The position numbers and the translations under genes were made by a program. A DNA stretch of 46,855 nt, counting the filler, from Catajapyx aquilonaris (Eukaryota): assembly GCA_000934665.2 (NCBI GenBank). It is 2 parts of 2 records of this genome, joined end to end, with 100 filler letters (N's around TTAATTAATTAA, not from the genome) between each part and the next. Parts side by side here need not be neighbours in the genome. Positions count along the whole stretch, not along the records: positions 1 to 23,624 come from KZ539407.1; 1 more part is not named here. One strand, written 5' to 3'. Of this stretch, positions 427 to 44,144 are shown in pieces; the first letter of the stretch is position 1; each line of letters begins with the position of its first letter. A model generated the notes under the pieces. That model did no database searches. It was not told where the DNA came from and saw only the letters and a list, made by a program, of their open reading frames with translations.

Positions 427-2750
427 TATATACCGGTATATACACATGGCAAAGGATACGTAGAAGTAAAAAAGAGAGTCCGCAAGCCCTCGTATTTATG
501 ATGTCCCTCGCTCCAGGGGTCAAGTTTGGGGTAAATAGGGTTGGAAGAAGGACGCGGGGTCATGGCCGGATGTAGGAGAGGGGAACGGAGAAACATGAGG
601 GAGGGGCCTAATTAGGAGGGGGGAAGGTGGTGAAGTAGGACCGGTATAACCACCTCCAGAAAAGACCAATAACAAGGTATAATGACGAAAGTATAGGTTT
701 GGCGTCGACAGTGCTCAAAATAGGCTTATAAATTCTGATGTCATCGTTCGAAAAATACGTTCATCGACATGGGATTGTGTATGCAGTGTAACAAAATAAC
801 TTACGAGTAATTAGGCTTGGAGGAAATTTTAAAAATTATTATTACTTACAAACTGGTCTTAGCCAATTTTCTGGATGTCGTAATATAATCATGTAACCTG
901 TTCGTCAATAGGAGAAACCTTAATAACACGCCAGTGAATTATCCTTACTTTTCATACTGCCAGCATGGATGTCATAATGGCCATATTTCCACACCACTGA
1001 ACTGCTTGCAAGTAGTGTAGTAGACTAACGCTTCAGTATTAATACAACATTACATCATGCCCCTCTCTTCCTAATGCAGCCTCAAAGATGCATTAAGAAG
1101 TAATGATGATTCTGGCTAGTACATGTGACTTTCCGCACAGAGAGGCCAAAATAACGATAATGGACTGCTTTTAACTCTGTTGCTGCTACAAGTCGCTGAA
1201 ATTTAATAGTTTATCACCTTTAAAAGACTCTTTGGCTCTTAGCAGCAGCCCAACTCTGCACGGAAACAAACAAGACGAATTCGATTTTTAGGGAGCCGCC
1301 TCCCAGGAACCTGCGAAACAGAATTATTTTTGAGAACCTGAAAAAAACCCAATTTCTTCTAAAGGCACCTGTGAAGAAATTGTTCCATTTAGGGCACCAT
1401 TACTTCAAGAACATATTAGTACTTTATGCAGTATTTAAAAGAATCAGTGTTTCCTAAAGCAAACCAACAAAATAATAGTGCTTTTCAATATATCCAAGGT
1501 TATTTGTTGTCCAGAGGAGCTGAGAAAATTTTTAAAGGCATATAACAAACATTTCCTATCAAGATGCCTGCAAAAATAGTTCCTTTGGAGGGACTTGTAA
1601 AAATAAGCATGTTTGTAAGCCGGAAGTAATCCGGAATTTTATTAAAGAAACTTTGTTACTTGACAGTCCCTTCTCAACATTGTTTTTGTTCCAGGAAGGT
1701 AGCTGCCACCTGGGAAAAGTTCCAAATCGGCCACCAATAGATCAATACGCCAAAGAGTGTGCCTGAGACAGCGGGAGGGGGGTAGTCCTCCTTCCCCCTC
1801 TCTTCCCTCTAAAAGGTAGAGTCTGGTCCTCTTTTGCTATCTGGTGAGGTCGGCGCCATAAAAGTGGCGGGATTGGTTTGGCAAACAGTTGGCGCAGTTA
1901 ACGCGCAGAGACGCCTCGTTGAAACGCCCTTTTCTTCTTCCCATTTCCAGGGGCCCTGCCTCGTCCTCTAAGCCTGTCAACTGCAGATTTGTCACAAAAG
2001 TACGAGACACGGAAGCGATATCCCCCCCCCCCTTTCCTTTTTTTGCGAACCCACCCCCTCCTATCTCCCACGCTCCTCCTCTACAGAAAATTGCATGACT
2101 GCTGTCTTGTCCTCAAAATGGCATCAACTCCACTCGCGACCCATGCATTATAAATTAAGCGTTTTGAGAGGAGACGACTTGCAGCATGGGCTAGGATAAC
2201 CACAGGGGACGCATTCAGGGGGACAGGAAGGGTGGTGGAGGAGCGTTTTTGTGTTTTTGAGAGTTTCCCTTTATAAGTGAAGAAAATTTGTGGAGTCAGG
2301 TATTAAAAATGCAGGGTTGTCGTAACCGTGTTTTATGTTCTACTGAACAAAACTATAGACTGCGAAATTCAATTTTAATGGAATGTCAGCTCCTCTAGTC
2401 AAAAAGTGGGTAAAATAAAAAGACCAATGTATGCCAAAGTTTCCAAACAGTCATAAAGTGCCACGTTGCTTCAACAAGCAATTCATAGCACGTGATGGAT
2501 TTTCTAAAGACTATCTGGTCGGTTCTGTCTATTTATAACAGTTGATTTTGGTATCACTCTATAGAGTATGAGATGCAAAATCAATTTTATGTGAAGGAGT
2601 AGAACATACGTAGTGTATTTTCAATGGTTTGAACATAGTAACATGTAACACTGTATGTAACATGTAACACATAGTAACACTGTATGGTATAATGTGGAAC
2701 TTGCTGTAGATGAAAAAAACTGAAATGCCTACCCAATATGGAAAATAAAT

Positions 2751-3430
2751 GGAGGGAGATGGTGGGGCGCTGCGGTAACGTATGGTCCCACGGATGTTAA
2801 GGTCCCGGGTTCGATCCAGCCTGGGGACACCCCCTTCATCTCGTGCAGAGTTGGGTCGTCTCTGGCTTCGTCTCGGGTGGAATTTCCGCTAGACATATCC
2901 ACCCGGGGGAGTTCACAAATTATGTACCATCTTGGAAACTGTGCACTGCACATTGCACATCCCCTCCTGTCATCCTGCCCGTGGGCCCGGGGCATTCAAA
3001 TGAATAGGCACCAAAATTTTATTTACTACATATATTTTATTTTGTATATTTTGTTTACCTCATGATGTCTCTTACGGGATCTGTAGGGGGTGGCACACCA
3101 TCATCTGTTGTCTGTATATTTTTCCGCTTCTTTCTCCGGTGCAAGGAAACAGGGACATTGGGAAAGGATAGAGATTGTTGGGGAGGGGACACTTGTGCAG
3201 GTGCAATGTCTTAAACCTTTGGGCCATGTGCAGTCCCCCATGAGGTTAGGTTGCCAGACACCTCCAAGGTGCAGGTCAGAAACACTCCTGACGCAGGTGA
3301 AAGGGAACTCCCAGGCGGGGATCGAACCTGGGACCCTTCACTCAGCAAGCCGAGTCGTTACCATCTCGGCTACCACACCTCCCCAAATAGGCACCAAAAT
3401 GTAACATCCATCAATAAAAAATAAATAAAG
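2751..3430 (+). mobile_element. tRNA-derived SINE family A, copy 1 (interrupted by a SINE B copy)
   Basis: A-box-like TGGGGCGCTGCGG, B-box GGTTCGATCC, tRNA-Pro-like AAGGTCCCGGGTTC. Body homologous to the copy at 5396-5732. A-rich tail near 3413-3429. Confidence 0.75.
3018..3385 (-). mobile_element. tRNA-derived SINE family B, copy 1
   Basis: Minus-strand head GGGGAGGTGTGGTAGCCGAGATGG...GGTTCGATCCCC. 15-bp TSD AATAGGCACCAAAAT at 3003-3017 and 3386-3400. Homologous to 4888-5225 and 35417-35773. Confidence 0.9.
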
Positions 3431-3471
3431 GTCAAAGTGCTTGTCCCCAAGGGGTCAAAGCACTACCCACA

Positions 3472-3544
<73 letters not shown>
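3472..3544. repeat. (ATT)n microsatellite
   Basis: Perfect trinucleotide run. Confidence 0.97.
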
Positions 3545-18238: not shown

Positions 18239-18345
18239 CGGTTCCAGGATTTCGTCCCCGACAAAACGTCCCCGAAAATTCGTCCCCGACACATTACGTC
18301 CCCGCCAAATAACGTCCCCGGAAAAAACGCCCCCTTCGGGGATGT
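18239..18345. repeat. tandem 14-16-bp CGTCCCCG repeats, probable MULE-like terminus
   Basis: CGGTTCCAGGA followed by five to six (A/T)nCGTCCCCG units. Partner end not found. Confidence 0.6.
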
Positions 18346-18518: not shown

Positions 18519-18810
18519 TAATAATAATAATAATAATTCATACCCCGTTATCAGCCATCGGCTCTTTAGGGGGGAAGTTTGTTTTGGCTGGAACTCTTTG
18601 CTTTCATTTTACTGTGCTCATTGGGATAGGATAGGGACGGAAGGAAGCGGCTGTGGCCTATTAATTACGGAAACAACTCCGGAATTTCCCTGGAAGGACC
18701 GTGGGAAACCACAGAAAACCGCGGTCAGAGTTGCCGGCCCCGGGATTCGAACCCAGGACCTCCCGATTAGCAGTCGGACGCCTTATCCACTATGCCAACC
18801 TGCTTCGGTT
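18519..18810 (-). mobile_element. tRNA-Ser-like SINE of a widespread insect type
   Basis: 17-bp TSD AACACAAATTACAGTAA (18502-18518, 18811-18827). Head with GACTGCTAATC and GGTTCGAATCCC. Core GGTTTTCTGTGGTTTCCC...GGCCACAGCCGCTTCCTTCC. (ATT)n tail. Confidence 0.9.
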
Positions 18811-18821
18811 AACACAAATTA

Positions 18822-19867
18822 CAGTAAAACTTCTATAAGTCGAATCTCCATGGGACCGAGAAAAAACTTCGAGTTATAGAAGATTCGAGTTAGAGAAGTT
18901 TGGAATTATTAATGCACATAACCCTATATGGAAACCTACCTTTATATCCAGCTACGAAATGTGTTCAAAACTTAAAAATAACTGTCACTATCACATTTAC
19001 AATGTTCCTCGTTGTTGTGGTGTAAAAAAGTCTCCATTATGGACATTTGCCTACTCTTAGATTCAAGGATTCAATTGTCACAATCAAGTCAAACCCTTCT
19101 TTGGGTACGTCAGGTAGACGGTGGAGATCAGGAAATTGAGCCTTTCTGTGCATGTGGCCTACTCTCGACCCTTAGGCTGGGAAATGAGAAAATGTTCCGT
19201 ACTCGCCAACATGAACTTGGACTTAAGGGGGGTTCACACTAGCTGACTGGAGCATACGAAAAGAACGATCCGAAAGAGTGGACCAATCAGAGCCCACTTG
19301 AGGATGACGAAAAGTGAAAGGGATTACGAAACAGAAAAGATGGGAGAAATCAACTTTTGACGGACACGGAATACGGAATACGTAGGCTAACGGACCTATC
19401 CACCAATGGAAGAGCCAGGAAAGCGGCAGGGGTGTGGCGAGCGAAAGTGAAAGTGAACGTGGGGGTAGCGCCGGCAGCGCCTCTGGCGGGGGAAGGACGA
19501 AGAACCTTAGTCGCGACGCGGGAGCCGGGGCAAGCGGGCCTGGGGAGACGGGAGAAGAGAAGGGGTACTGGTCAGAAGGGAGGGAGAGCCCCAGGGAGAG
19601 TCCTGCCAGAGAGTTCAAGCACAGCGCATGCGCTGCGGGATCCAGAGGCTAAAGCCACGCCACTCGCTTTTGTGTCTGAACACCTTTCGCCTCTTTCCGT
19701 TCGTTCCGTCATACCGTTCCGTTCGTTTCGTATGCTACCGTCAGCTAGTGTGAACCAGCCTTTAGGGAGACTGAAAATGCATTGATATCCCATCGTAAGA
19801 CCCCGCCAGCACTTCGAGTTATGGAAAACTTCGACTTAGGGAAGTACGACTTATAGAAGTTTTACTA
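18822..19867. mobile_element. pogo/Tigger-like non-autonomous element
   Basis: TA|CAGTAAAACTTCTATAAGTCG...CGACTTATAGAAGTTTTACTA|TA. Repeated TTCGAGTTA subterminal motifs at both ends. Confidence 0.85.
19226..19761. mobile_element. PIF/Harbinger-like MITE nested in the pogo-like element
   Basis: TIR AGG(GG/CT)GGTTCACACTAGCTGAC...AGCATACGAAA. TTA TSD at 19223-19225 and 19762-19764. Confidence 0.85.
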
Positions 19868-20083
19868 TACCCTTTAGAAGGCCCTCAATTCTCACCTCCT
19901 TCCAGTAAGGGATCTCCGTGGAAATGAGCGCCTTCAAAGCTAGCATGTCAGACGAATGCCAACTACATGTACGATATAAGACAGTGCTGTCTAATGTGGG
20001 ATACTCCAGTGCTGTTACTCCCTATGGGGCATTGGATAGCATACTTCTTTATTATCTTGTCTCATTGTGCTATATTTTAGAGA

Positions 20084-23000
20084 CTCGCTTTGCGAGGCGT
20101 GGGGCTGCGCCCCACTTGCGCCCCTTCGGCTCGAATTAGTCCGGTCCCGCGCAGGTCCTCCTCGGTCTCCGTAAGTCTCCGAGGCGCGGTGCAGGTGCAC
20201 CCGGCCACCCCACACTTACCACACTCTCCGATGTGAACAGAGCAAGTCTTTTTACACAAAAATTGGTCGGAGCGGAGTGGCAACAGTTTACAGAACCCGT
20301 GACGTCATCGCTAAAGGTGTGGAGTATGAGAATGCGCCCTAGCTGACGCATGGTGAACAAGGTCCCGAGGTGGGATTAGAGTAGAACCATATGTCAGCGG
20401 TAGGGGGAAGGGGGCTCCGGAGAGGGTGTGCTATTGTTCTCCGGCGGCTTAATGACGAGCGGATGGGCAAGGTGGCACGTGCAAAAGTCGACTTTTGGCC
20501 ATCTCCAAAACGGCTGGGAATTTTGCGATTATGAGGATTTTTGGCATTGCTAAACCGGGAGCAACAAATCCAACGGAATTTCGACCAGAGCTCTACGACC
20601 TCGGGAAGTGCGTAATCTTTTCCGTCCTCCTATATCCTCCTCGGATTTGGGCTTTATATATATTAGACTCGCTTCGCGAACCGGTGGGGCTCCGCCCCCC
20701 GGACCCCCCCGTGGGGCTCCGCCCCACTTGCGCGCCTTCGGCGCGGTTCCCGTATTCCGCCTAATCCATCCGGTTACAGAAATCAGTGACTTCACCGGTA
20801 GCCCGGAGGAGAATGCGAACGTGCCCTGTGTGACGTATCGTTGAAAACAGCGATTGGGATGACAAAGTGGGACCATCTGTGACGTATCATTCCCACGTCT
20901 CCAGGTTTGAGTAGTGTAAAGATCCCAGGGGGTGGAGGGGAGGGGGTGGGCCATTGTTCTCCTTCTTTACGACCATCTGCGGGCAAGGTCGCAAGTCGAT
21001 CCGAGGCAGTTTGCGGATACATTAATTTCGCGATCTCGGGTTTGCGTCTACATTTAATTTGGCGATCTCGAAAACGACTGAGAATTTTGGGACTTTGAGG
21101 ATTTTTGGCCAATGTAAATCGGCTGCAAGGAATCCAACGGAATTTCGACCACAGCTCTACGACCTCGGGAAGTGCGAAATCTTTTTCATCCTCCTCCTAT
21201 ATATCCTCCTCCTCCTCGTTTAGGGGCTTTATGTATACTTGACTCGCTTTGCGAGCCGGTGGGGCTCCGCCCCCCGGACCCCCCCCCCNNNNNCCCCCCC
21301 CCCCCGTGGGGCTGCGCCCCACCTGCGCGCCTTCGGCGCGGTGCCCGTATTCCGCCTAATCCATCCGGTTACATAAATCAGTGACGTCACCGTTAGCGAT
21401 GAGGAGTTTCCGAACGTGCCCTCTCTGACGTATCGTTCAAAACAGCGCTTGGGACGACAGATGGGACCATCTCTGACGTATCATTCCAACGGCTGCTTTG
21501 AGCTGTGGGTTTGAGCAGGTCCATGGTTTGAGTGACAAGCGGGTGGAGAGGAGTGGGTGGTCCATTGTTCTCGGGGATCCGGGGGAGTTTGCGGATACAT
21601 TAATTTCGCGATCTCGGGTTTGCGTCTACATTTAATTTGGCGATCTCCGAAACGGCTGGGAATTTTGCGATTATGAGGATTTTTGTAAACACTAAACCGG
21701 GGGCAAGGAATCCAGCGGTGCAAGTCCGAGGTTTCTACGACCTTGGGAAGTGCGAAATCTTTTCCATCCTCCTCCTATATCCTATATCCTCCTCGTTTAG
21801 GGGCTTTATATATACTTGACTCGCTTTGCGAGGCGGGGGGGGCTCCGCCCCCCCACACCCCCCCTTGGGGCTGCGCCCCAATTGGCGCGCCTTCGACGCT
21901 ACGCGTTCCCGCCCGGGCCTACCCACTTACCCAGCACCGCTAGAGAGCTGGAAATAATAACCTGGAGTTCGTCGTCAACGGACGAGTGACCAATGAAGCA
22001 TGACAAATACCTGGATCACCACTACGTGGCTGGCAACAATATCCGGGAGTATGTCGTCAACGGAATGAACAATGAAGCAAGACAAATTCCAGGACTACCA
22101 CTACAGGGCTGGCAATAATAACCTGGAGTATGTCGTCAACGGACTGACCAGTGAAGCATGGCAAATACCACACCTGCAACAATCAACCAACCTACCAACC
22201 AGCCAATCAACCAACAACAATGAGCGCGCCCCACAAGCAACAGTGCAAGTGCAGCCGGCCGCCACACACTTCCTCCTACACTCTGCAAAAATTGGTCGGG
22301 GCGAGGTGGCAGTGTGGCATCCATGTTCACAGGACACCCGTGACGTCACCACTAAAGGTGCGAGTAAAAGGCAACATGACGCTATAACAGATGACGTAGT
22401 GGAGGCGTTGAGTAGGGGAGGAGGATTCGANNNNNNNNNNNNNNNNNNNNNNNGGCCGCCGGGGGAAGCGGGAGGTTATTGTGGGTGGTGGAGGCAATGC
22501 GATAGTGGTGCTCGTCTGTTGGCCGCCCGGGGAACCGGGGGAGTTGGCGGATATACATTAATTTCGCGATCTCGGGTTTGCGTCTACATTTAATTTGGCG
22601 ATCTCAAAAACGGCTGGGAAATTCGCGGTTTTGAGGATTTTTGAAAATAGGAAAGCGGGTGCAAGGATTCCAACGGCGTAAGTCCGAGGTCTGTACGACC
22701 TCGGGAAGTGGGAGATCTTTTCCATCCTATATCCTCGTCGGATTGGGGCTTTATATATATATTAGACTCGCTTTGCGAGGCGGGGGGGCTCCGCCCCCCC
22801 ACACCCCCCCTTGGGGCTGCGCCCCAATTGGCGCGCCTTCGGTGCTACGCGTTCCCGCCCCGGCCTACCCAGCACCGCTAGAGAGCTGGCAACAATAACC
22901 TGGAGTATGTCGTCAACGGAGTCAACAATGAAGCATGACAAATACCTCACCTCCAACAATCAGCCAACCCATCACCCAGCCAATCAATCCAGCCAATCAA

Positions 23001-23624
23001 CCAACAACAATGAGTGCGCCCGATTTGCGCGCCTTCGGCCCGAATTGGTCAGGCGCAAGTGCAGCCGGCCGCCCCACACTTCCCCGTGACGCCACTACTG
23101 AGGGTGTGGAGTATAATCTGAATGCGCCCTAGATGACGTATCGTGAAAAGGCAACATGACGCAATAACATATGACGTGGTGGCGGCGGTGGGTAGGGGAG
23201 GAGGATTCGAGGGTCCCCCGCGGGAGGAAGTGGGTGGTGCAGGTGCAGGCGATGGTGGCTCTCGTCTGTTGGCCGCCTGGGGCAACTATCTGGACCCGTA
23301 TCATTTTAAAAAAAAGGCTAGGTGGGATTAGCGTGAGCTGTCAGCGGGTGATGGATGGGGCTATTGTTCTCGGGAAGTTTGCGGATTCATTAATTGCGCG
23401 ATCTCGGGTTTGCGTCTGCATTTAATTTGGCGATCTCGAAAACGGCTGGGAATTTTGCGATTATGAGGATTCTTGTAAACACTAAACCGGGGGCAAGGAA
23501 TCCAACGGTGCAAGTCCGAGGTTTCTACGACCTCGGGAAGTTCGAAATCTTTTCCATCCTCCTATATCCTATATATCCTCCTCGTTTAGGGGCTTTATAT
23601 ATACTTGACTCGCTTTGCGAGGTG
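20084..23624 (-). mobile_element. head-to-tail array of non-autonomous Helitron-like units (5 complete, 1 cut by the gap)
   Basis: Units 20084-20667, 20668-21242, 21243-21819, 21820-22766, 22767-23608, 23609-gap. On the minus strand each starts TC(TAA/AAG)TATA..TAAAGCCC and ends in stacked hairpins plus CGAG. No TSD or TIR. Confidence 0.7.
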
Positions 23625-23724
23625 NNNNNNNNNNNNNNNNNNNNNNNNNNNNNNNNNNNNNNNNNNNNTTAATTAATTAANNNNNNNNNNNNNNNNNNNN
23701 NNNNNNNNNNNNNNNNNNNNNNNN
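23625..23724. other. assembly gap with synthetic TTAATTAATTAA linker
   Basis: N-run / TTAATTAATTAA (23669-23680) / N-run. The 12-mer gives stop codons in all six frames. Confidence 0.9.
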
Positions 23725-33410: not shown

Positions 33411-34283
33411 GGTTGGACCGTCCGGCTAGTGGGCGGTGATTGGTGGAGGGGGGAAACGTCACGGGGAGGATAAATTCAAACTGGGATAGCCGGATAGGGC
33501 TTTCCATGCAATGTCATGCACTTTACGTAATTATTTTCACACACTTCTAAGTGAGCTAAAAATTTGAGAATTGGCAGACCTGTAACGCAGACATCCAAGA
33601 CTACGTCAAATGTCCCGAATCACACATTTTCGCCCTGGGGCCGGCCCACGGGCGAAAGTTCTTAGGCAAGGCAAAAAGGGCATAATTCCCTTCTTGGCTA
33701 ACCTAATGACACAAATTGGCACACTGAACACTGACATGGAAATGAAAGCAGTGGTAAAAGTACGAGAACCTAATCGCTCTGCTTCGGGGCGGCCAAGAGG
33801 CTTGTATAAAAGTGGGAAGAAGCGCAGAAATTGTTAGAGGATATTGAAATACAAGTAATTCATTACTTTATTGTTTATTGTCATTTCCAACACCGACGAT
33901 AATCTTTTCAAATATGATGAAGTATGATTTTGTTAAAGATTATATTAGTATTTTACGTCAGTACAAGTTAAGTGCAATAAAGGATGAAACATAATAAGAC
34001 TGCAGAGGTATTTTGACAATATTTTGGCACATCAGGCTTTTGTTTCAGAAGTAGCTGCCTTGAAACCAATCAGGAAAAGTGGACATCTGCGTACCGTATA
34101 TTGGGGGCCTAAATTCATTACCACGCACATGCAACTGGGTGCATCACGTGCACAAATATTTTGGCGAAGCTGCTTTTTTATTAGCTGCGCTGACTCACGG
34201 CTGTTCGTGTAGTTTATTGTTTGTCCCGCTGGAGGTGCTGGAGTCCCGCTGGCTTCGCGTCACGGCCGGTATGGTGGTGCAAG

Positions 34284-35200
34284 ATGGGCGGATCGGAGTG
34301 TGCAGTGGCTATTTGCAAAAATTATTATAGCAGAACTCGCGAAAGAAATGTAATCTATCACAGATTTCCGAAGGATCCGATCCTGTGCAAGCAGTGGCTG
34401 ATGAAGTGTAAAAGGGGTGATGTAGTGAATGTTAAAGATGCTAGAATCTGTTCAGATCATTTTATACCGGATGACTATGAAAGAGACCTACGAATCGAGT
34501 TGCTAGGGTTACCGCCCAAAAGAATATTGAACGCAAATTGACTATTGAAGAAGAAACCACCACTGCAGTTCTGCAAGTGGCCGGGTATCCTGAAAATGAT
34601 GAAGTTTTACCTGCCTCACCTGACTGTACATCTGCCGCAACTTCTTTTGATGCCACAGGATTGGTATGTATCTATTAGTCTACGATAAACTTATTTTTTT
34701 TAAATGATTTTTCTCTCTCTACAGGAGTCAATAATTAATGAACCATCTACGAGTAGTGTGGTTGCTACTCATTCATCAAATATTGACACACCAATTTCAC
34801 ATTCATCAACTAGTGGCGTGGATAGAAGGGGAAAGAGACATAGTGCACGTAGCATACGGAAGCGGGCTATTGACACTCTGGAAAATGTATCACCCATTAA
34901 GAGGTCGCGAACATCAGAAACTCAAACAGACAGCATCCTCAGCAGTCCTGCACAGAAAAAAAGGGAAAGTAGTTTACTTCGAGAAAATGAGCGACTGAAG
35001 AAGACTATTGCAAACCTTACTGCTTCGAATACAGCTAGAGGCTTGGAAGTACAAAATTACAAGAAGATTTGCACTCGGCAGAAAAGAGTTTTGAAAGCAA
35101 AACAAGCCAAAATAGACTCTGCTGTAGAAGACAAAGTGACAAAAGTTTTCAGTAAAATATTTACGCCCAGGCAGATACGTGCTCTCACCACTGGAAAGGT
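34284..35200 (+). pseudogene. THAP-domain P-element-like transposase, 5' relic with intron
   Basis: MGGSECAVAIC...HRFPKD...W...C...RICSDHF (THAP C2CH zinc finger). Frameshift where the AVP motif is expected. Intron 34664-34724 (GTATGT...TACAG). Coiled coil then FSKIFTPRQIRAL. No catalytic domain. Confidence 0.85.
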
Positions 35201-36205: not shown

Positions 36206-37816
36206 TCACAGCTCATCTTTAAGATTGTTGTCCTCCTCGGAAGCTGTGGGTGGAGGTCCTCCTGCTCCTTGATATAACTTGGCAATGATTGGCTGCACAA
36301 CATCTTCCAGTTCCTTCTTCTGTCGCTTGAATTCTTCTGTGCGTGCATCATGGTTGCTCTCCAGCCACTTGATTTTCTCATCAATCACCTCGATGATCTT
36401 CTCCTCGTCATCAGCCAGCTTCGCCCCAAGCTTGTCCTTGTCATTCACTTGATTTTTCAACGAATAAGTGTATGACTCCAGCTCATTACGTGCCTGGAGT
36501 CTTTCCTTCAGCTTCTTGTCATTATCTGCAAACTTCTCTGCATCCTTGATCATACGCTCAATGTCATCTGGAGTGAGCCTATTCTGGTCATTGGTGATTG
36601 TGATTTTCTCCTTGTTGCCTGTTCCCTTGTCTTCGGCCAAGACCTGAAGGATACCGTTGGCATCAATCTCAAATGTGACCTCAATTTGTGGTACACCACG
36701 TGGTGCTGGTGGGATTCCTGTGAGGTCAAACTTGCCCAGGAGCTGGTTGTCCTCGGTCATAGGTCTCTCACCCTCGTACACCTGAATGGTAACAGTATGT
36801 TGGTTGTCAGAGGCAGTGGAGAAGATCTGTGACTTCTTGGTTGGTATGACCGTGTTGCGGGGAATCAGCTTGGTCATGACACCTCCCACAGTTTCAATTC
36901 CCAGGGTCAGAGGGTTGACATCGAAGAGGACAATATCACCAGTGTCTTGCTCACCACTCAACACTCCAGCCTGAACTGCAGCACCATATGCAACGGCTTC
37001 ATCTGGGTTAATTCCCCGACTAGGCTCCTTGCCACCAAAGAAGTCCTTTACCAGGTGCTGGATCTTTGGGATGCGGGTTGATCCACCAACCAAGACAATC
37101 TCATCAATATCCTTCTCCTGCATGTCAGCATCTTCCAACACCTCCTGCACGGGGTTCATTGTTGATCGGAACAGATCCATGTTCAACTCCTCGAACTTGG
37201 CGCGGGTCAGAGTCTCGGAAAAGTCCTCTCCCTCATAGAAGCTCTCAATCTCAATTCGCACCTGGTGGCTTGAAGACAGAGCACGCTTGGCCTTCTCAAC
37301 TTCACGACGCAGCTTCTGAACAGCACGGTTGTCTTTCCTGATGTCTTTGCCCTTCTTTTTCTTGTACAGCTTGATGAAGTGGTCCATCACACGCTGATCA
37401 AAGTCCTCACCTCCCAAGTGAGTATCTCCATTGGTAGCAATAACCTCAAACACACCATTGTCAATGATGAGCAAGGAGACATCAAAGGTTCCACCACCCA
37501 AATCGAACACCAGCACATTCTTTTCACCTTCCTTCTTGTCAAGCCCATAAGCAATGGCAGCAGCAGTTGGTTCATTGATGACACGCATCACATTGAGGCC
37601 TGCAATCACTCCAGCATCTTTCGTTGCCTGGCGCTGAGCGTCATTGAAGTAGGCTGGGACGGTAACGACAGCATGAGTCACTTTCTTCCCAAGGTATGCC
37701 TCAGCCACCTCCTTCATTTTGCTTAACACCATTGCAGAGATCTCTTCTGGTGCAAACACCTTCGTGCCCTGAGCTGTCTCAACTTGAATGTGCGGTTTGC
37801 TGTTCTTCTCAATCAC
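36206..37816 (-). CDS. HSPA5: ER chaperone BiP/GRP78 (Hsc70-3), last coding exon
   Basis: HSP70 motifs [31 protein letters not shown]-terminal KDEL. Acceptor TTTTCCTCTTTAG|GTG, phase 0. Confidence 0.98.
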
Positions 37817-38006
37817 CTAAAGAGGAAAAAGTCACTCAGTAACAGCCAAATAAAATCTTAAGGAACACTGAAAACATTCTGCCACATTGCAAGTTCTGTT
37901 AAAATATAAAATAAGTAAATCCGTAAAATGCAATATTATTTCCCTAAATGTTCCCTTCAAGACTACATTTGCAGGCAAGTAGGCATGTTGCAGGCAGTAG
38001 GCATAC

Positions 38007-38238
38007 CTTGAATGGGAAGTACTTGATGTCATGCTGAACAGATGTATCAGTCCACTCCCTCCCAATGAGCCGCTTGGCATCGAAGACTGTGTTCTCAGGG
38101 TTCGTTGTCAACTGGTTCTTGGCTGCATCACCAATCAGACGCTCACCATCAGGAGTGAAAGCAACATAGGAAGGCGTGATTCGATTACCCTGGTCATTAG
38201 CAATGATCTCCACCCTTCCATTCTTGAAAACTCCAACA
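38007..38238 (-). CDS. HSPA5: BiP/GRP78, second coding exon
   Basis: (C)[27 protein letters not shown]...YFPFK. Acceptor TTTGCTTTCAG|T, donor AAG|GTATGC. Confidence 0.97.
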
Positions 38239-38864
38239 CTGAAAGCAAATACCACAATATTACTTCACTGCCATCTAATCAGCAGCCTATAGTAAAACTT
38301 GCAGAATGATGCAACATGAACAAAAACTTTCAAACCCACAATGAAAGAATAGATTAATCTGTGGCTCAATACAATGAAAAGATTAAGTACAGTAGCCACC
38401 AGTCAAGTTCATTTTAAATAGTTAGTAGTTGAATATTAATATTTGTGCTGGTGCAGCAAAGCTGGTTGATTTGCTCCATAAAACAGCAAAATAGGGTGTT
38501 ACTTTTGGAACGACGAATGGGGTCATGTCATCTTAAGGCATCACTAAACACCTCCAGTGATGCAATAATTTTATATGAGTCTACATGAATACAATCATGT
38601 AGCCATTGGGTGTTAATTGGTTTTAGTAATGAGCACAGCTACAGTAGTTGCCTAGAGCCTAGTATGAATGGAAATCTGAAACTGCGTTTTTTAAAATGCC
38701 AAATTAGTGTTCCATTGCATTCATGCCTGACACACAGATCTGCTGCTGCCACCAGTGCTGTATCAACTACAAAATCCTACATCAATAATGATTCCCCCTC
38801 ATAAATGCAATGTCAATCCCATTTCACCATATTCCAATGCCCTAAAGTGCAACTGTGCAAAGTA

Positions 38865-42658: not shown

Positions 42659-44144
42659 CTTAATAGGATTTATTCGGACTGGCCATGCCCGTTAAGGCCC
42701 AACAGCCCACTCACTCCCAACACCAACAAACATAATACAAAATAAAACAACTACGCTGCCACCAATCATCCATAATCCAGTCATCCAATAAGTCACCAAT
42801 CATCCAGACAACAGTGCACCAGTCACCAATCATCCAGACAACAGTCCACCAGTCATCATTCATATTCCAGTCATCCATCATCAAGTCATCAAGTCATAAG
42901 CCATCAGTCATCCATCAAGTCATCCATCATCGATTCATACGCCACCAATCATCCAACATCAGTCCACCAGACATCCTCCATCATCAGGCCACCAGTCATC
43001 CATCATCAGGCATCAGGCGCCGCGCCGTGTCCTTGCAGTGGTCCCTCCTGCCCCCCGGAAGTCCCTGTTGAATAATCATCAGCCTCTAGGCAGAAACGAT
43101 TGAAAGCTTCTGGGATTAGAGTGAAGGCGCTCTTGTTGCAAGGCCAACCCAGGCCCTTGGACACCGCCGCACATAGCAGTTGGCCCCGTGCTCTCAAAAC
43201 CTCTGGTAACCTGCAATCCCACAGCACATGTTCGGGGTCCTGCCTTCCTAAGCTGCACGAACATCTGGCACTCTCCTCGACTCCTTTGTCAAAAAATCTA
43301 GAGAGATAGGCCCGGAATGGGCCGTGACCCGAGATGAAACGGGCAACATGACCATGAACGTGTCTCCTGATGTCCACGGCTGGCAGGAAGGCCCGGCTCC
43401 AAGTCCTCCCAACCACTTCCCAGCGAGTCTGCCACAGTTCCAAAATGTGCTGCTGTATCCTCCTGTTCACCGCTGATCTGCGTTCCGGTAGGAACACCTG
43501 GCCAACTAACTGGTCCTACGCCCGTCTTGCCTCCTCATCCACTCGCTCATTCCCAGACACCCCAGCGTGGCCCTTCACCCAAAACAGAGAAACCACCGCC
43601 GGGATGACCTGATGAATATCCCTTATCCTGGCCGCCACCGTCGTCTGCATCCTGGGATCGGCCAACGTCATGAGTGCGGACAGGGAGTCAGAGGTGATGC
43701 CAGCTCTGCTGCCTGTGGGAAGCCCCAACTCACTTAGCGTCTCCATGGCTGGTCCCACCATCTCCAGTTCCATATCAAAGATTCCAGCTGTAGGTGGAAA
43801 AGGCACTCTCCTCGTGAACATCTCCCTCCCGGCTCCATCGTAGGCCACCAGAGCCCCTCCAGCTTTCCTGCCCTGGGTGACGGATCCGTCCGTGAAGATC
43901 ACCACATCATTAACCAGCTCCTCAGTCCATCGTCCTATGTCGAGGCGCTCCCAAGTCCAGGGAGGGACCAGGTGCCGCAGATCCTGATTCCTGACCGTCA
44001 GACCTTCAGACTCCCTTTTCTTGAAGATCCGAACCAGGAATCCATGCCCAGGTTCCAGAGAATAGGCCCCATACTAGAACCCTGAGGGCAGCCCCTAGTC
44101 ATAGTGAAGGTGAAGCCTGGGAGCCTCATTTCTCTAGGTTAAGG
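42659..44144 (-). mobile_element. 5'-truncated R1/LOA-like non-LTR retrotransposon (RT fragment, RNase H, C-terminal Zn knuckle)
   Basis: 14-bp TSD TGGCAAAACTGACA (42645-42658, 44145-44158). Motifs RGCPQGSSMGPILWN, IFTDGS...WVKGHAGVSGNERVD, SGHGPFRAYL...CSC...EHVLWDC. One in-frame stop at 43516-43518. Confidence 0.92.
42760..43010. repeat. CAGTCATCCATC-type degenerate minisatellite in the LINE 3' UTR
   Basis: Repeated CAGTCA/TCATCCA units. Confidence 0.75.

Follow-up and report, generated by a model that had tools for sequence, protein, structure and literature searches.

A head-to-tail array of mosaic units with a rolling-circle body plan and a terminal-hairpin CGAG end in Catajapyx aquilonaris

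We analyzed a 46,855-nucleotide (nt) stretch of DNA, filler included, from Catajapyx aquilonaris (assembly GCA_000934665.2), hereafter the window, and describe an array of repeated units at positions 20084-23624, at the end of scaffold KZ539407.1. The array comprises five complete, non-coding units joined head to tail on the minus strand without any spacer, followed by a 16-nt stub of a sixth. The body plan of the units is that of non-autonomous rolling-circle (Helitron-superfamily) elements, with a non-canonical tail, and the units are mosaics of one another. In its workings the family resembles a rolling-circle element, and it probably descends from one. The explanation that we favor, with a confidence somewhat short of even, is a rolling-circle-derived array that now evolves like a satellite, by homologous exchange at identical tracts of 50-60 nt. 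It is probably an ordinary transposon-derived satellite and not a new cassette system.

Read on the minus strand, each monomer starts with TC(T/A)A(A/G)TATA and continues through a conserved head and a variable, TGACG-studded body to a GC-rich hairpin tail. Six unit starts on the plus strand delimit the five complete units, with successive lengths of 584, 575, 577, 947, and 842 base pairs (bp). These are the lengths that had been reported in an earlier note on this DNA, and the cut sixth unit listed there amounts to 16 nt. The components of the array, and the spacer that follows it, are:

20084-20667, minus strand: unit 1, 584 bp, short type; it has body blocks in common with units 4 and 5, and its head is without a 32-nt duplication.
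20668-21242, minus strand: unit 2, 575 bp, with a variant terminal hairpin, CTCGCTTCGCGAA on the plus strand.
21243-21819, minus strand: unit 3, 577 bp, with a body and tail of the unit 2 kind and a head that resembles unit 5 over its first ~190 nt.
21820-22766, minus strand: unit 4, 947 bp, long type with a 79-nt subrepeat.
22767-23608, minus strand: unit 5, 842 bp, long type; it has a single 79-nt subrepeat copy and a relic internal tail.
23609-23624, minus strand: first 16 nt of the sixth unit (its terminal hairpin), cut by the scaffold end.
23625-23724, no strand: synthetic spacer between the two scaffolds of the window, with 44 N on either side of a 12-nt AT linker.

Two units contain gaps, one of 5 N at 21289-21293 (unit 3, within a C/G run) and one of 23 N at 22431-22453 (unit 4). 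Because the array stops at the scaffold end, the sequence after the spacer need not be its genomic neighbor. Neither BLAST nor nhmmer searches with head, tail, and full-unit profiles detected further copies of the unit elsewhere in the window, and the only extra match is the relic tail inside unit 5.

The junctions between units are exact. At all five internal junctions the sequence reads GA|CTCGC (GCGAG|TC on the minus strand), and no base is gained or lost. The junction motif TATAYTWGACTCGC occurs five times with no mismatch, against an expectation of 0.67 even if two mismatches are allowed. At 20668, the unit start differs from the junction/hairpin motif by one base. On the minus strand, units 1 and 4 start with TCTAATATA, units 2, 3, and 5 start with TCAAGTATA, and the unit ends read ...CTCGCAAAGCGAG, with unit 2 differing by one base. 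Both the common junction and the division of the 5' ends into two types therefore stand as they had been claimed.

The tails are 78-112 nt long and GC-rich, and each consists of two to four triloop hairpins, of which the last, CTCGC-AAA-GCGAG on the minus strand, ends exactly at the TC of the next monomer. Its pattern, CTCGCNNNGCGAG, was identified five times in the window, compared with 0.02 expected occurrences. A second hairpin type, GGGGC-NNN-GCCCC, occurs 10 times in the window, nine of them in the array, against an expectation of 0.04 across the window. Folding of the tails as single strands of DNA yields z-scores between -1.1 and -4.3. The centroid structures of four of the five folded tails include the terminal hairpin; the exception is unit 2 with its variant sequence. 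The hairpins are located as follows:

20084-20096, no strand: terminal hairpin CTCGC-TTT-GCGAG (plus-strand reading), at the only visible array edge; also at 21243, 21820, 22767, and 23609, with the variant at 20668.
20101-20113, no strand: first of the nine tail hairpins of the GGGGC-NNN-GCCCC triloop type, which recur at 20686, 20713, 21261, 21308, 21839, 21867, 22785, and 22813.

At the other end of the unit, a 192-nt block is present in all five units at 63-95% identity. The head as detected by nhmmer is 174 nt long in unit 1 and reaches ~240 nt in each of the other four units (overall about 175-245 nt). These values bear out the shared ends of about 190 and 90 bp described previously. Four of the five units carry the 32-nt head duplication; unit 1 is the one without it:

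21587-21647, no strand: 32-nt duplication of the head block, with further instances at 21009-21070 and 23377-23438; it falls inside a 53-62-nt tract that is identical among units 2, 3, and 4.

The bodies are more variable, and were previously described as differing interiors. Variability and large indels are indeed what we observe, but the five-unit alignment carries all of the bodies through shared TGACG-containing motifs, and most of the differences are large indels. TGACG itself occurs 22 times in the 3.5-kb array versus 45 times in the remaining 43 kb of the window. The interiors are thus homologous, indel-rich, and modular, not unrelated. The extra length of units 4 and 5 comes from an added module with a 79-nt subrepeat. 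In both, a unit-1-like body is followed by a degraded unit-1-type tail, the 79-nt module, and then a second, intact tail:

21935-22170, no strand: 79-nt subrepeat in unit 4, 2.9 copies by Tandem Repeats Finder; a further copy lies in unit 5 at ~22866-22947.
23015-23059, minus strand: relic of a unit-1-type tail inside unit 5, without terminal hairpins, recognized by the tail profile (E 1.1e-4) and by alignment.

Relationships among units change along their length. In the head, unit 3 is closest to unit 5, with block identities of 97%, 90%, and 96% across the first 190 alignment columns, and in body and tail it is allied with unit 2 (74-97%). Units 4 and 5 are 78-97% identical in body and tail, yet 81% identical in the first 40 columns. 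Unit 1 is nearest to unit 4 in those first 40 columns (86%) and nearest to unit 2 in columns 40-100 (92%), and in one body block it matches units 4 and 5 at 73-75%. This mosaic is real in the sequence at hand. It upholds both the grouping of interiors proposed earlier (units 2 with 3, and 4 with 5, with blocks of unit 1 shared with the latter pair) and the proposal that 5' ends assort independently of interiors, most clearly in unit 3, where a unit-5-like head (96-97%, one block 90%) precedes a unit-2-like body. The change of partner in unit 3 falls on a tract that is identical over 62 nt between units 2 and 3, and over 53 nt between unit 4 and each of these two. Breakpoints lie 40-190 nt into the head. 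Similar units adjoin twice, as units 2 and 3 and as units 4 and 5. The likeness of the unit 3 and unit 5 heads, 1.79 kb apart, could mark a two-unit higher-order repeat. As the earlier note argued, soundly in our judgment, a single rolling-circle concatemer cannot yield units of this kind.

To what extent is this mosaic a property of the family? Contigs from four read sets were compared with positions 19300-23624 at a likeness of at least 85%. The read sets come from one sample, probably the source sample of the window assembly, and therefore offer no independent support for the window. Per run, 2460-3498 contigs match, and of these 710-1030 are at least 99% identical to the window. Word depth summed over contigs, which is not a copy number, ranges from 450 to 93,000 in array bins, versus 20-32 for long, single-copy-like flank contigs, and abundance differs more than 10-fold among array blocks. 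The family clearly has hundreds to thousands of copies.

The contig detail examined covers 24 of 1161 loose-end rows and 32 of 12,378 contig pieces. Some contigs connect modules in combinations other than those of the array. Specifically, unit-2-type bodies are joined to unit-4-type heads (20986 to 22522, at depths of 500-1950), and the tail side of unit-2-type sequence is joined to unit-1-type bodies (20784 to 20286, at depths of 1390-2380). Because these other combinations occur in contigs beyond this locus and this assembly, reassortment of heads, bodies, and tails is a family-wide property. Only ~1% of aligned contig sequence continues into unlike sequence, and none of the 24 rows places a loose end at a unit junction. 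By contrast, the unrelated interspersed element at 19762-19866 is flanked by loose-ended contigs, 19-44 of them per side and run. This is a weak indication that family copies mostly lie in tandem and not as solo elements.

A high-copy family raises the concern that the mosaic and the order of the units are partly products of assembly, in that a short-read assembler or gap closer switched copies at identical tracts of a thousand-copy repeat. The gaps within units 3 and 4, the position of the array at a scaffold end, and the 53-62-nt identical tracts located exactly where unit 3 changes partner are all consistent with such switching. The 32 same-sample contig pieces examined cover 127-309 nt within the array, none spanning it, and at many positions of unit 1 every matching contig carries a base that differs from the window. 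Against this, reassortment is also observed in unbranched contigs that were built independently of this assembly, each run contains the 710-1030 contigs of near-identity to the window, and every junction carries private variants of the recurring sequence. We consider this explanation quite unlikely. The particular order of the units and some of the breakpoints may nonetheless be artefacts, given the gaps in units 3 and 4 and the identical tract at the switch.

The array has one visible edge, which coincides with the terminal hairpin; the next base of the flank is T on the minus strand, and the flank starts TCTCT. Positions 19904-20078 of the flank are matched at ~90% identity by a ~1296-nt contig of single-copy-like depth, and nothing is matched beyond 20078. 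Because this paralogue contig stops at 20078, the true edge lies within 20079-20084, that is, 0-5 nt from the terminal hairpin. Behind the last hairpin, on the minus strand, the flank resembles the 5' end of the unit itself, a score equaled by 1.8% of 93,056 window 20-mers. Since the paralogue shares most of the flank, the resemblance is a property of the target and not the remains of a broken unit. It is nevertheless weak evidence, coming from one AT-rich site with p = 0.018. The flank at 19904-20078 is itself a low-copy repeat, with a summed depth of 121-167 versus 20-32 for single-copy sequence.

The exact junctions and this edge bear on the possibility of serial, end-directed insertion, in which a transposase would nick resident termini or mimics of the 5' end, and circles of different subfamilies would be added unit by unit. 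This would explain why the junction is exact at all five positions although different head and tail types meet there, and why the flank resembles the 5' end as a feature of the target. There is also precedent. Part of PMC4778049 reports bat Helitrons inserted with the 5' end of one abutting the 3' end of another, and passages of PMC4067079 place distantly related Helitrons directly adjacent to each other in bat and maize. However, like neighbors occur twice, which would be rare under independent draws from many combinations of modules. Mosaicism also occurs inside units, with one breakpoint on the 53-62-nt identical tract, for which insertion alone is insufficient, and the resemblance at the single AT-rich flank is weak. 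Serial insertion as the main process strikes us as quite improbable. A more specific form of it, in which a terminal-hairpin (CGAG) rolling-circle family prefers resident termini or 5'-end mimics as targets and stacks subfamily circles in an integron-like manner, is more doubtful again; in that case the array edge beside a 5'-end-like target would be the footprint of the first insertion. The sequential, junction-specific accretion of circles envisaged in the earlier note is thus possible and has published precedent, but the evidence leans slightly against it: like units are neighbors, the switch lies on an identical tract, and reassortment occurs elsewhere in the genome.

Several features fit a rolling-circle plan. 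Read on the minus strand, the first bases of all five complete units are TCTAA or TCAAG, in agreement with the TC start of canonical Helitrons (Helitron1). GC-rich hairpins are stacked at the 3' end, the units are non-coding, conserved ends surround a variable, repeat-bearing middle, a relic tail is present, and the units form a head-to-tail array. Canonical Helitrons carry a GC-rich hairpin ~10-12 nt upstream of the 3' end; here the second GGGGC-NNN-GCCCC hairpin ends 16-18 nt before the unit terminus. Canonical Helitrons also insert between A and T and leave no target-site duplication; the 3' flank seen here opens with T, and the 5' edge of the array is beyond the scaffold end. Helentrons and HINE elements have a palindrome of 5-10 bp located 8-35 bp from the 3' terminus, TT insertion, and T runs at their boundaries. 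No T runs were found at either end of the units. Helentrons and HINE elements are also described, in part of PMC4067079, as having subterminal inverted repeats of 12-15 bp that lie 2-4 nt inside the 5' terminus and 38-60 bp inside the 3' terminus.

A number of observations weigh against a rolling-circle origin, or against reading the locus literally. The CTRR 3' end is absent, and all six unit ends are GCGAG (CGAG) on the minus strand, in accordance with the non-canonical end that had been noted before. The final hairpin reaches the very end of the unit (0 nt away) and does not lie ~10 nt upstream of it. Searches in both orientations found no 12-15-bp subterminal inverted repeats in the five units. 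The best inverted matches, in three of the five units, are 9-10 nt long with one mismatch, occur at inconsistent positions, and are equaled by 13-39 of 200 shuffles; two units have none, and in the opposite orientation there is none of at least 8 nt. None of the 76 open frames of at least 90 amino acids in the window matches Rep/helicase families. Exact-pattern scans with a head motif and with the junction motif detected no relatives in metagenome contigs, prokaryote genomes, or viral contigs. The unit phase depends on one array edge, whose position may be off by as much as 5 nt, and the sequence of the locus comes from a gapped assembly. Finally, none of the 32 contig pieces examined spans a whole unit or bridges a junction, although neither the lack of bridging pieces in this set nor the low depth of some parts of the array proves anything.

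The previous designation of the array as Helitron-like therefore holds for anatomy (TC start, 3' hairpins, non-coding units, arrays). Membership in a known family is not supported, given the CGAG end, the terminal position of the hairpin, the lack of subterminal repeats, and the absence of a Rep/helicase from the window. As some defining features fail, we do not file the family under Helitron1 or under Helentron/HINE. Two other sources were considered and rejected. Replitrons were set aside; the relevant part of PMC10288648 describes them from plants, algae, and protists only. For a CRESS-virus-type origin, a comparison by eye only of the AT-rich junction with the stem-loop nonanucleotide consensus gave no match.

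Alternatively, the array could be a complex satellite or tandem repeat with no rolling-circle origin, for example one of a spacer-promoter-like or subtelomeric kind, and TC...CGAG would then be a point within a conserved, palindrome-bearing block of 280-350 nt. Head and tail do form one continuous conserved block across the junction, and because they do so, conservation alone marks no terminus within the array. The very high summed depth, the contigs that almost never enter unlike flanks, and the extension of the array to the scaffold end are what such a satellite would produce. Read on the plus strand, the order within the unit resembles upstream TGACG and CCAAT motifs leading into a TATA-rich stretch and then hairpins. 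Both tests for Helitron-type membership also failed on defining features, namely the CGAG end and the subterminal inverted repeats. Yet the visible edge lies 0-5 nt from the terminal hairpin and not at an arbitrary phase, and the TC start, stacked 3' hairpins, and relic internal tail are specific to a rolling-circle plan. In the array, Rfam searches returned nothing either at the gathering threshold or with the E limit relaxed to 1, so a known structured-RNA gene family is unsupported, and no rRNA was found in the window. On balance, we regard a satellite with no rolling-circle origin as unlikely.

We therefore return to a rolling-circle-derived array that has become satellite-like as our tentative preference. 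Like known Helitron arrays, this one may have been seeded by rolling-circle copying past the termination hairpin, by a circle with joined ends, or by end-to-end insertion. Later, unequal crossing-over and gene conversion among neighboring and dispersed copies would have reshuffled heads, bodies, and tails, with template switching during copying as a further possible form of exchange. Homologous exchange is suggested as the main source of heterogeneity by the two pairs of like neighbors, by the breakpoint of unit 3 on an identical tract, and by the modules recombined elsewhere in the genome. The relic tail has a parallel in bat Helitrons, in which, according to part of PMC4778049, an internal relic tail is the product of 3'-end bypass or of insertion beside a truncated copy.

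The remainder of the window includes other repeats and several coding regions. The interspersed element of ~105 bp at 19762-19866 has a summed contig depth of 74,000-135,000. The consensus that precedes this element in other copies reappears at ~19196-19225, and the element seems to be split by an insertion. A ~540-bp element at 19222-19765, with 46-nt terminal inverted repeats (87% complementary), lies inside this high-copy element. Farther upstream, in a repeat-rich stretch, is a tRNA-Ser(GCT)-like sequence (18732-18803, minus strand; Rfam 39.7 bits, also predicted by ARAGORN), with 16-nt tandem repeats beside it at 18249-18334 and 18868-18909. It may be a tRNA-derived repeat instead of a working gene.

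An HSP70 gene is encoded at 36206-38264 on the minus strand, in two open frames ~130 nt apart (Pfam HSP70, 4.7e-220 and 7.6e-31); the interval between them is probably an intron. Matches to NAD-GH on the opposite strand are antisense frames of this gene. In window coordinates HSP70 is ~13 kb from the array, yet it is on the neighboring scaffold. Another open frame carries a THAP domain (E 4e-15; 34194-34538, plus strand) and is likely a transposon-derived gene, and one with RNase H (E 5.6e-11; 43519-44073, minus strand) is likely a retroelement remnant.

If the rolling-circle reading is true, the array provides an arthropod example of Helitron-type elements becoming satellite-like, with reshuffling of heads, bodies, and tails. 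The terminal-hairpin CGAG end could then help to define what a Rep/helicase transposase needs at the 3' end. For the present, the family is relevant mainly to annotation, as a thousand-copy modular repeat that breaks short-read assemblies.

Reassortment of ends is familiar in Helitrons, and their classification treats 3' and 5' ends separately for this reason. PMC4067079 only alludes to that scheme. Tandem arrays of Helitrons are known from bat, silkworm, Drosophila, rice, and maize, as passages of PMC4067079 and PMC5148889 relate. Arrays "with variety of unit lengths" already feature in part of bioRxiv 10.1101/2024.11.21.624632, and part of bioRxiv 10.1101/2021.06.02.446622 describes head-to-tail Helitron junctions on a Drosophila Y chromosome. 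For frogs, a section of PMC12001565 reports that arrays arise more prevalently from Helitron2 than from Helitron1.

Among known systems, the closest likeness in organization is to arrays of non-autonomous Helitrons, examples of which, in the portions of the literature cited here, are Helibat in Myotis, elements in Bombyx, Helitron-1_DPe on the Drosophila pseudoobscura Y, plant centromeric Helitrons, and Hydractinia subtelomeric arrays. As those sources present them, these have in common with our array non-coding units placed head to tail, a 5' TC directly after the 3' end, varied lengths, and high copy number. Different elements abut end to end in published arrays, and bypass or adjacent insertion gives rise to new 3' ends, according to parts of PMC4067079, PMC5148889, and PMC4778049. 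Unlike known Helitron arrays, the one described here has CGAG within the terminal hairpin in place of a hairpin, ~10 nt, and CTRR, and in one short array it mixes at least three types of head, body, and tail.

The units also resemble HINE/DINE-1-like elements (non-autonomous Helentrons, of the Helitron2 group). In the account given in part of PMC4067079, these have an arthropod host, are non-coding and high-copy, and have conserved ends and heterogeneous subfamilies, with central tandem repeats in some copies and a short palindrome at the 3' end. In contrast to them, our units have neither subterminal inverted repeats nor T runs, and their palindrome, with a 5-bp stem, sits at the very terminus instead of 8-35 bp inward. 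The family itself, with its terminal-hairpin CGAG end, may be new. Finally, the array shares with transposon-derived satellites, such as those of the DINE-TR1 type and Helentron-carried oyster repeats (PMC7492417 and PMC12628747), the amplification of a mobile sequence in tandem followed by unequal exchange. In those satellites it is mostly an internal subrepeat that expands, whereas here the whole element is the repeat unit.

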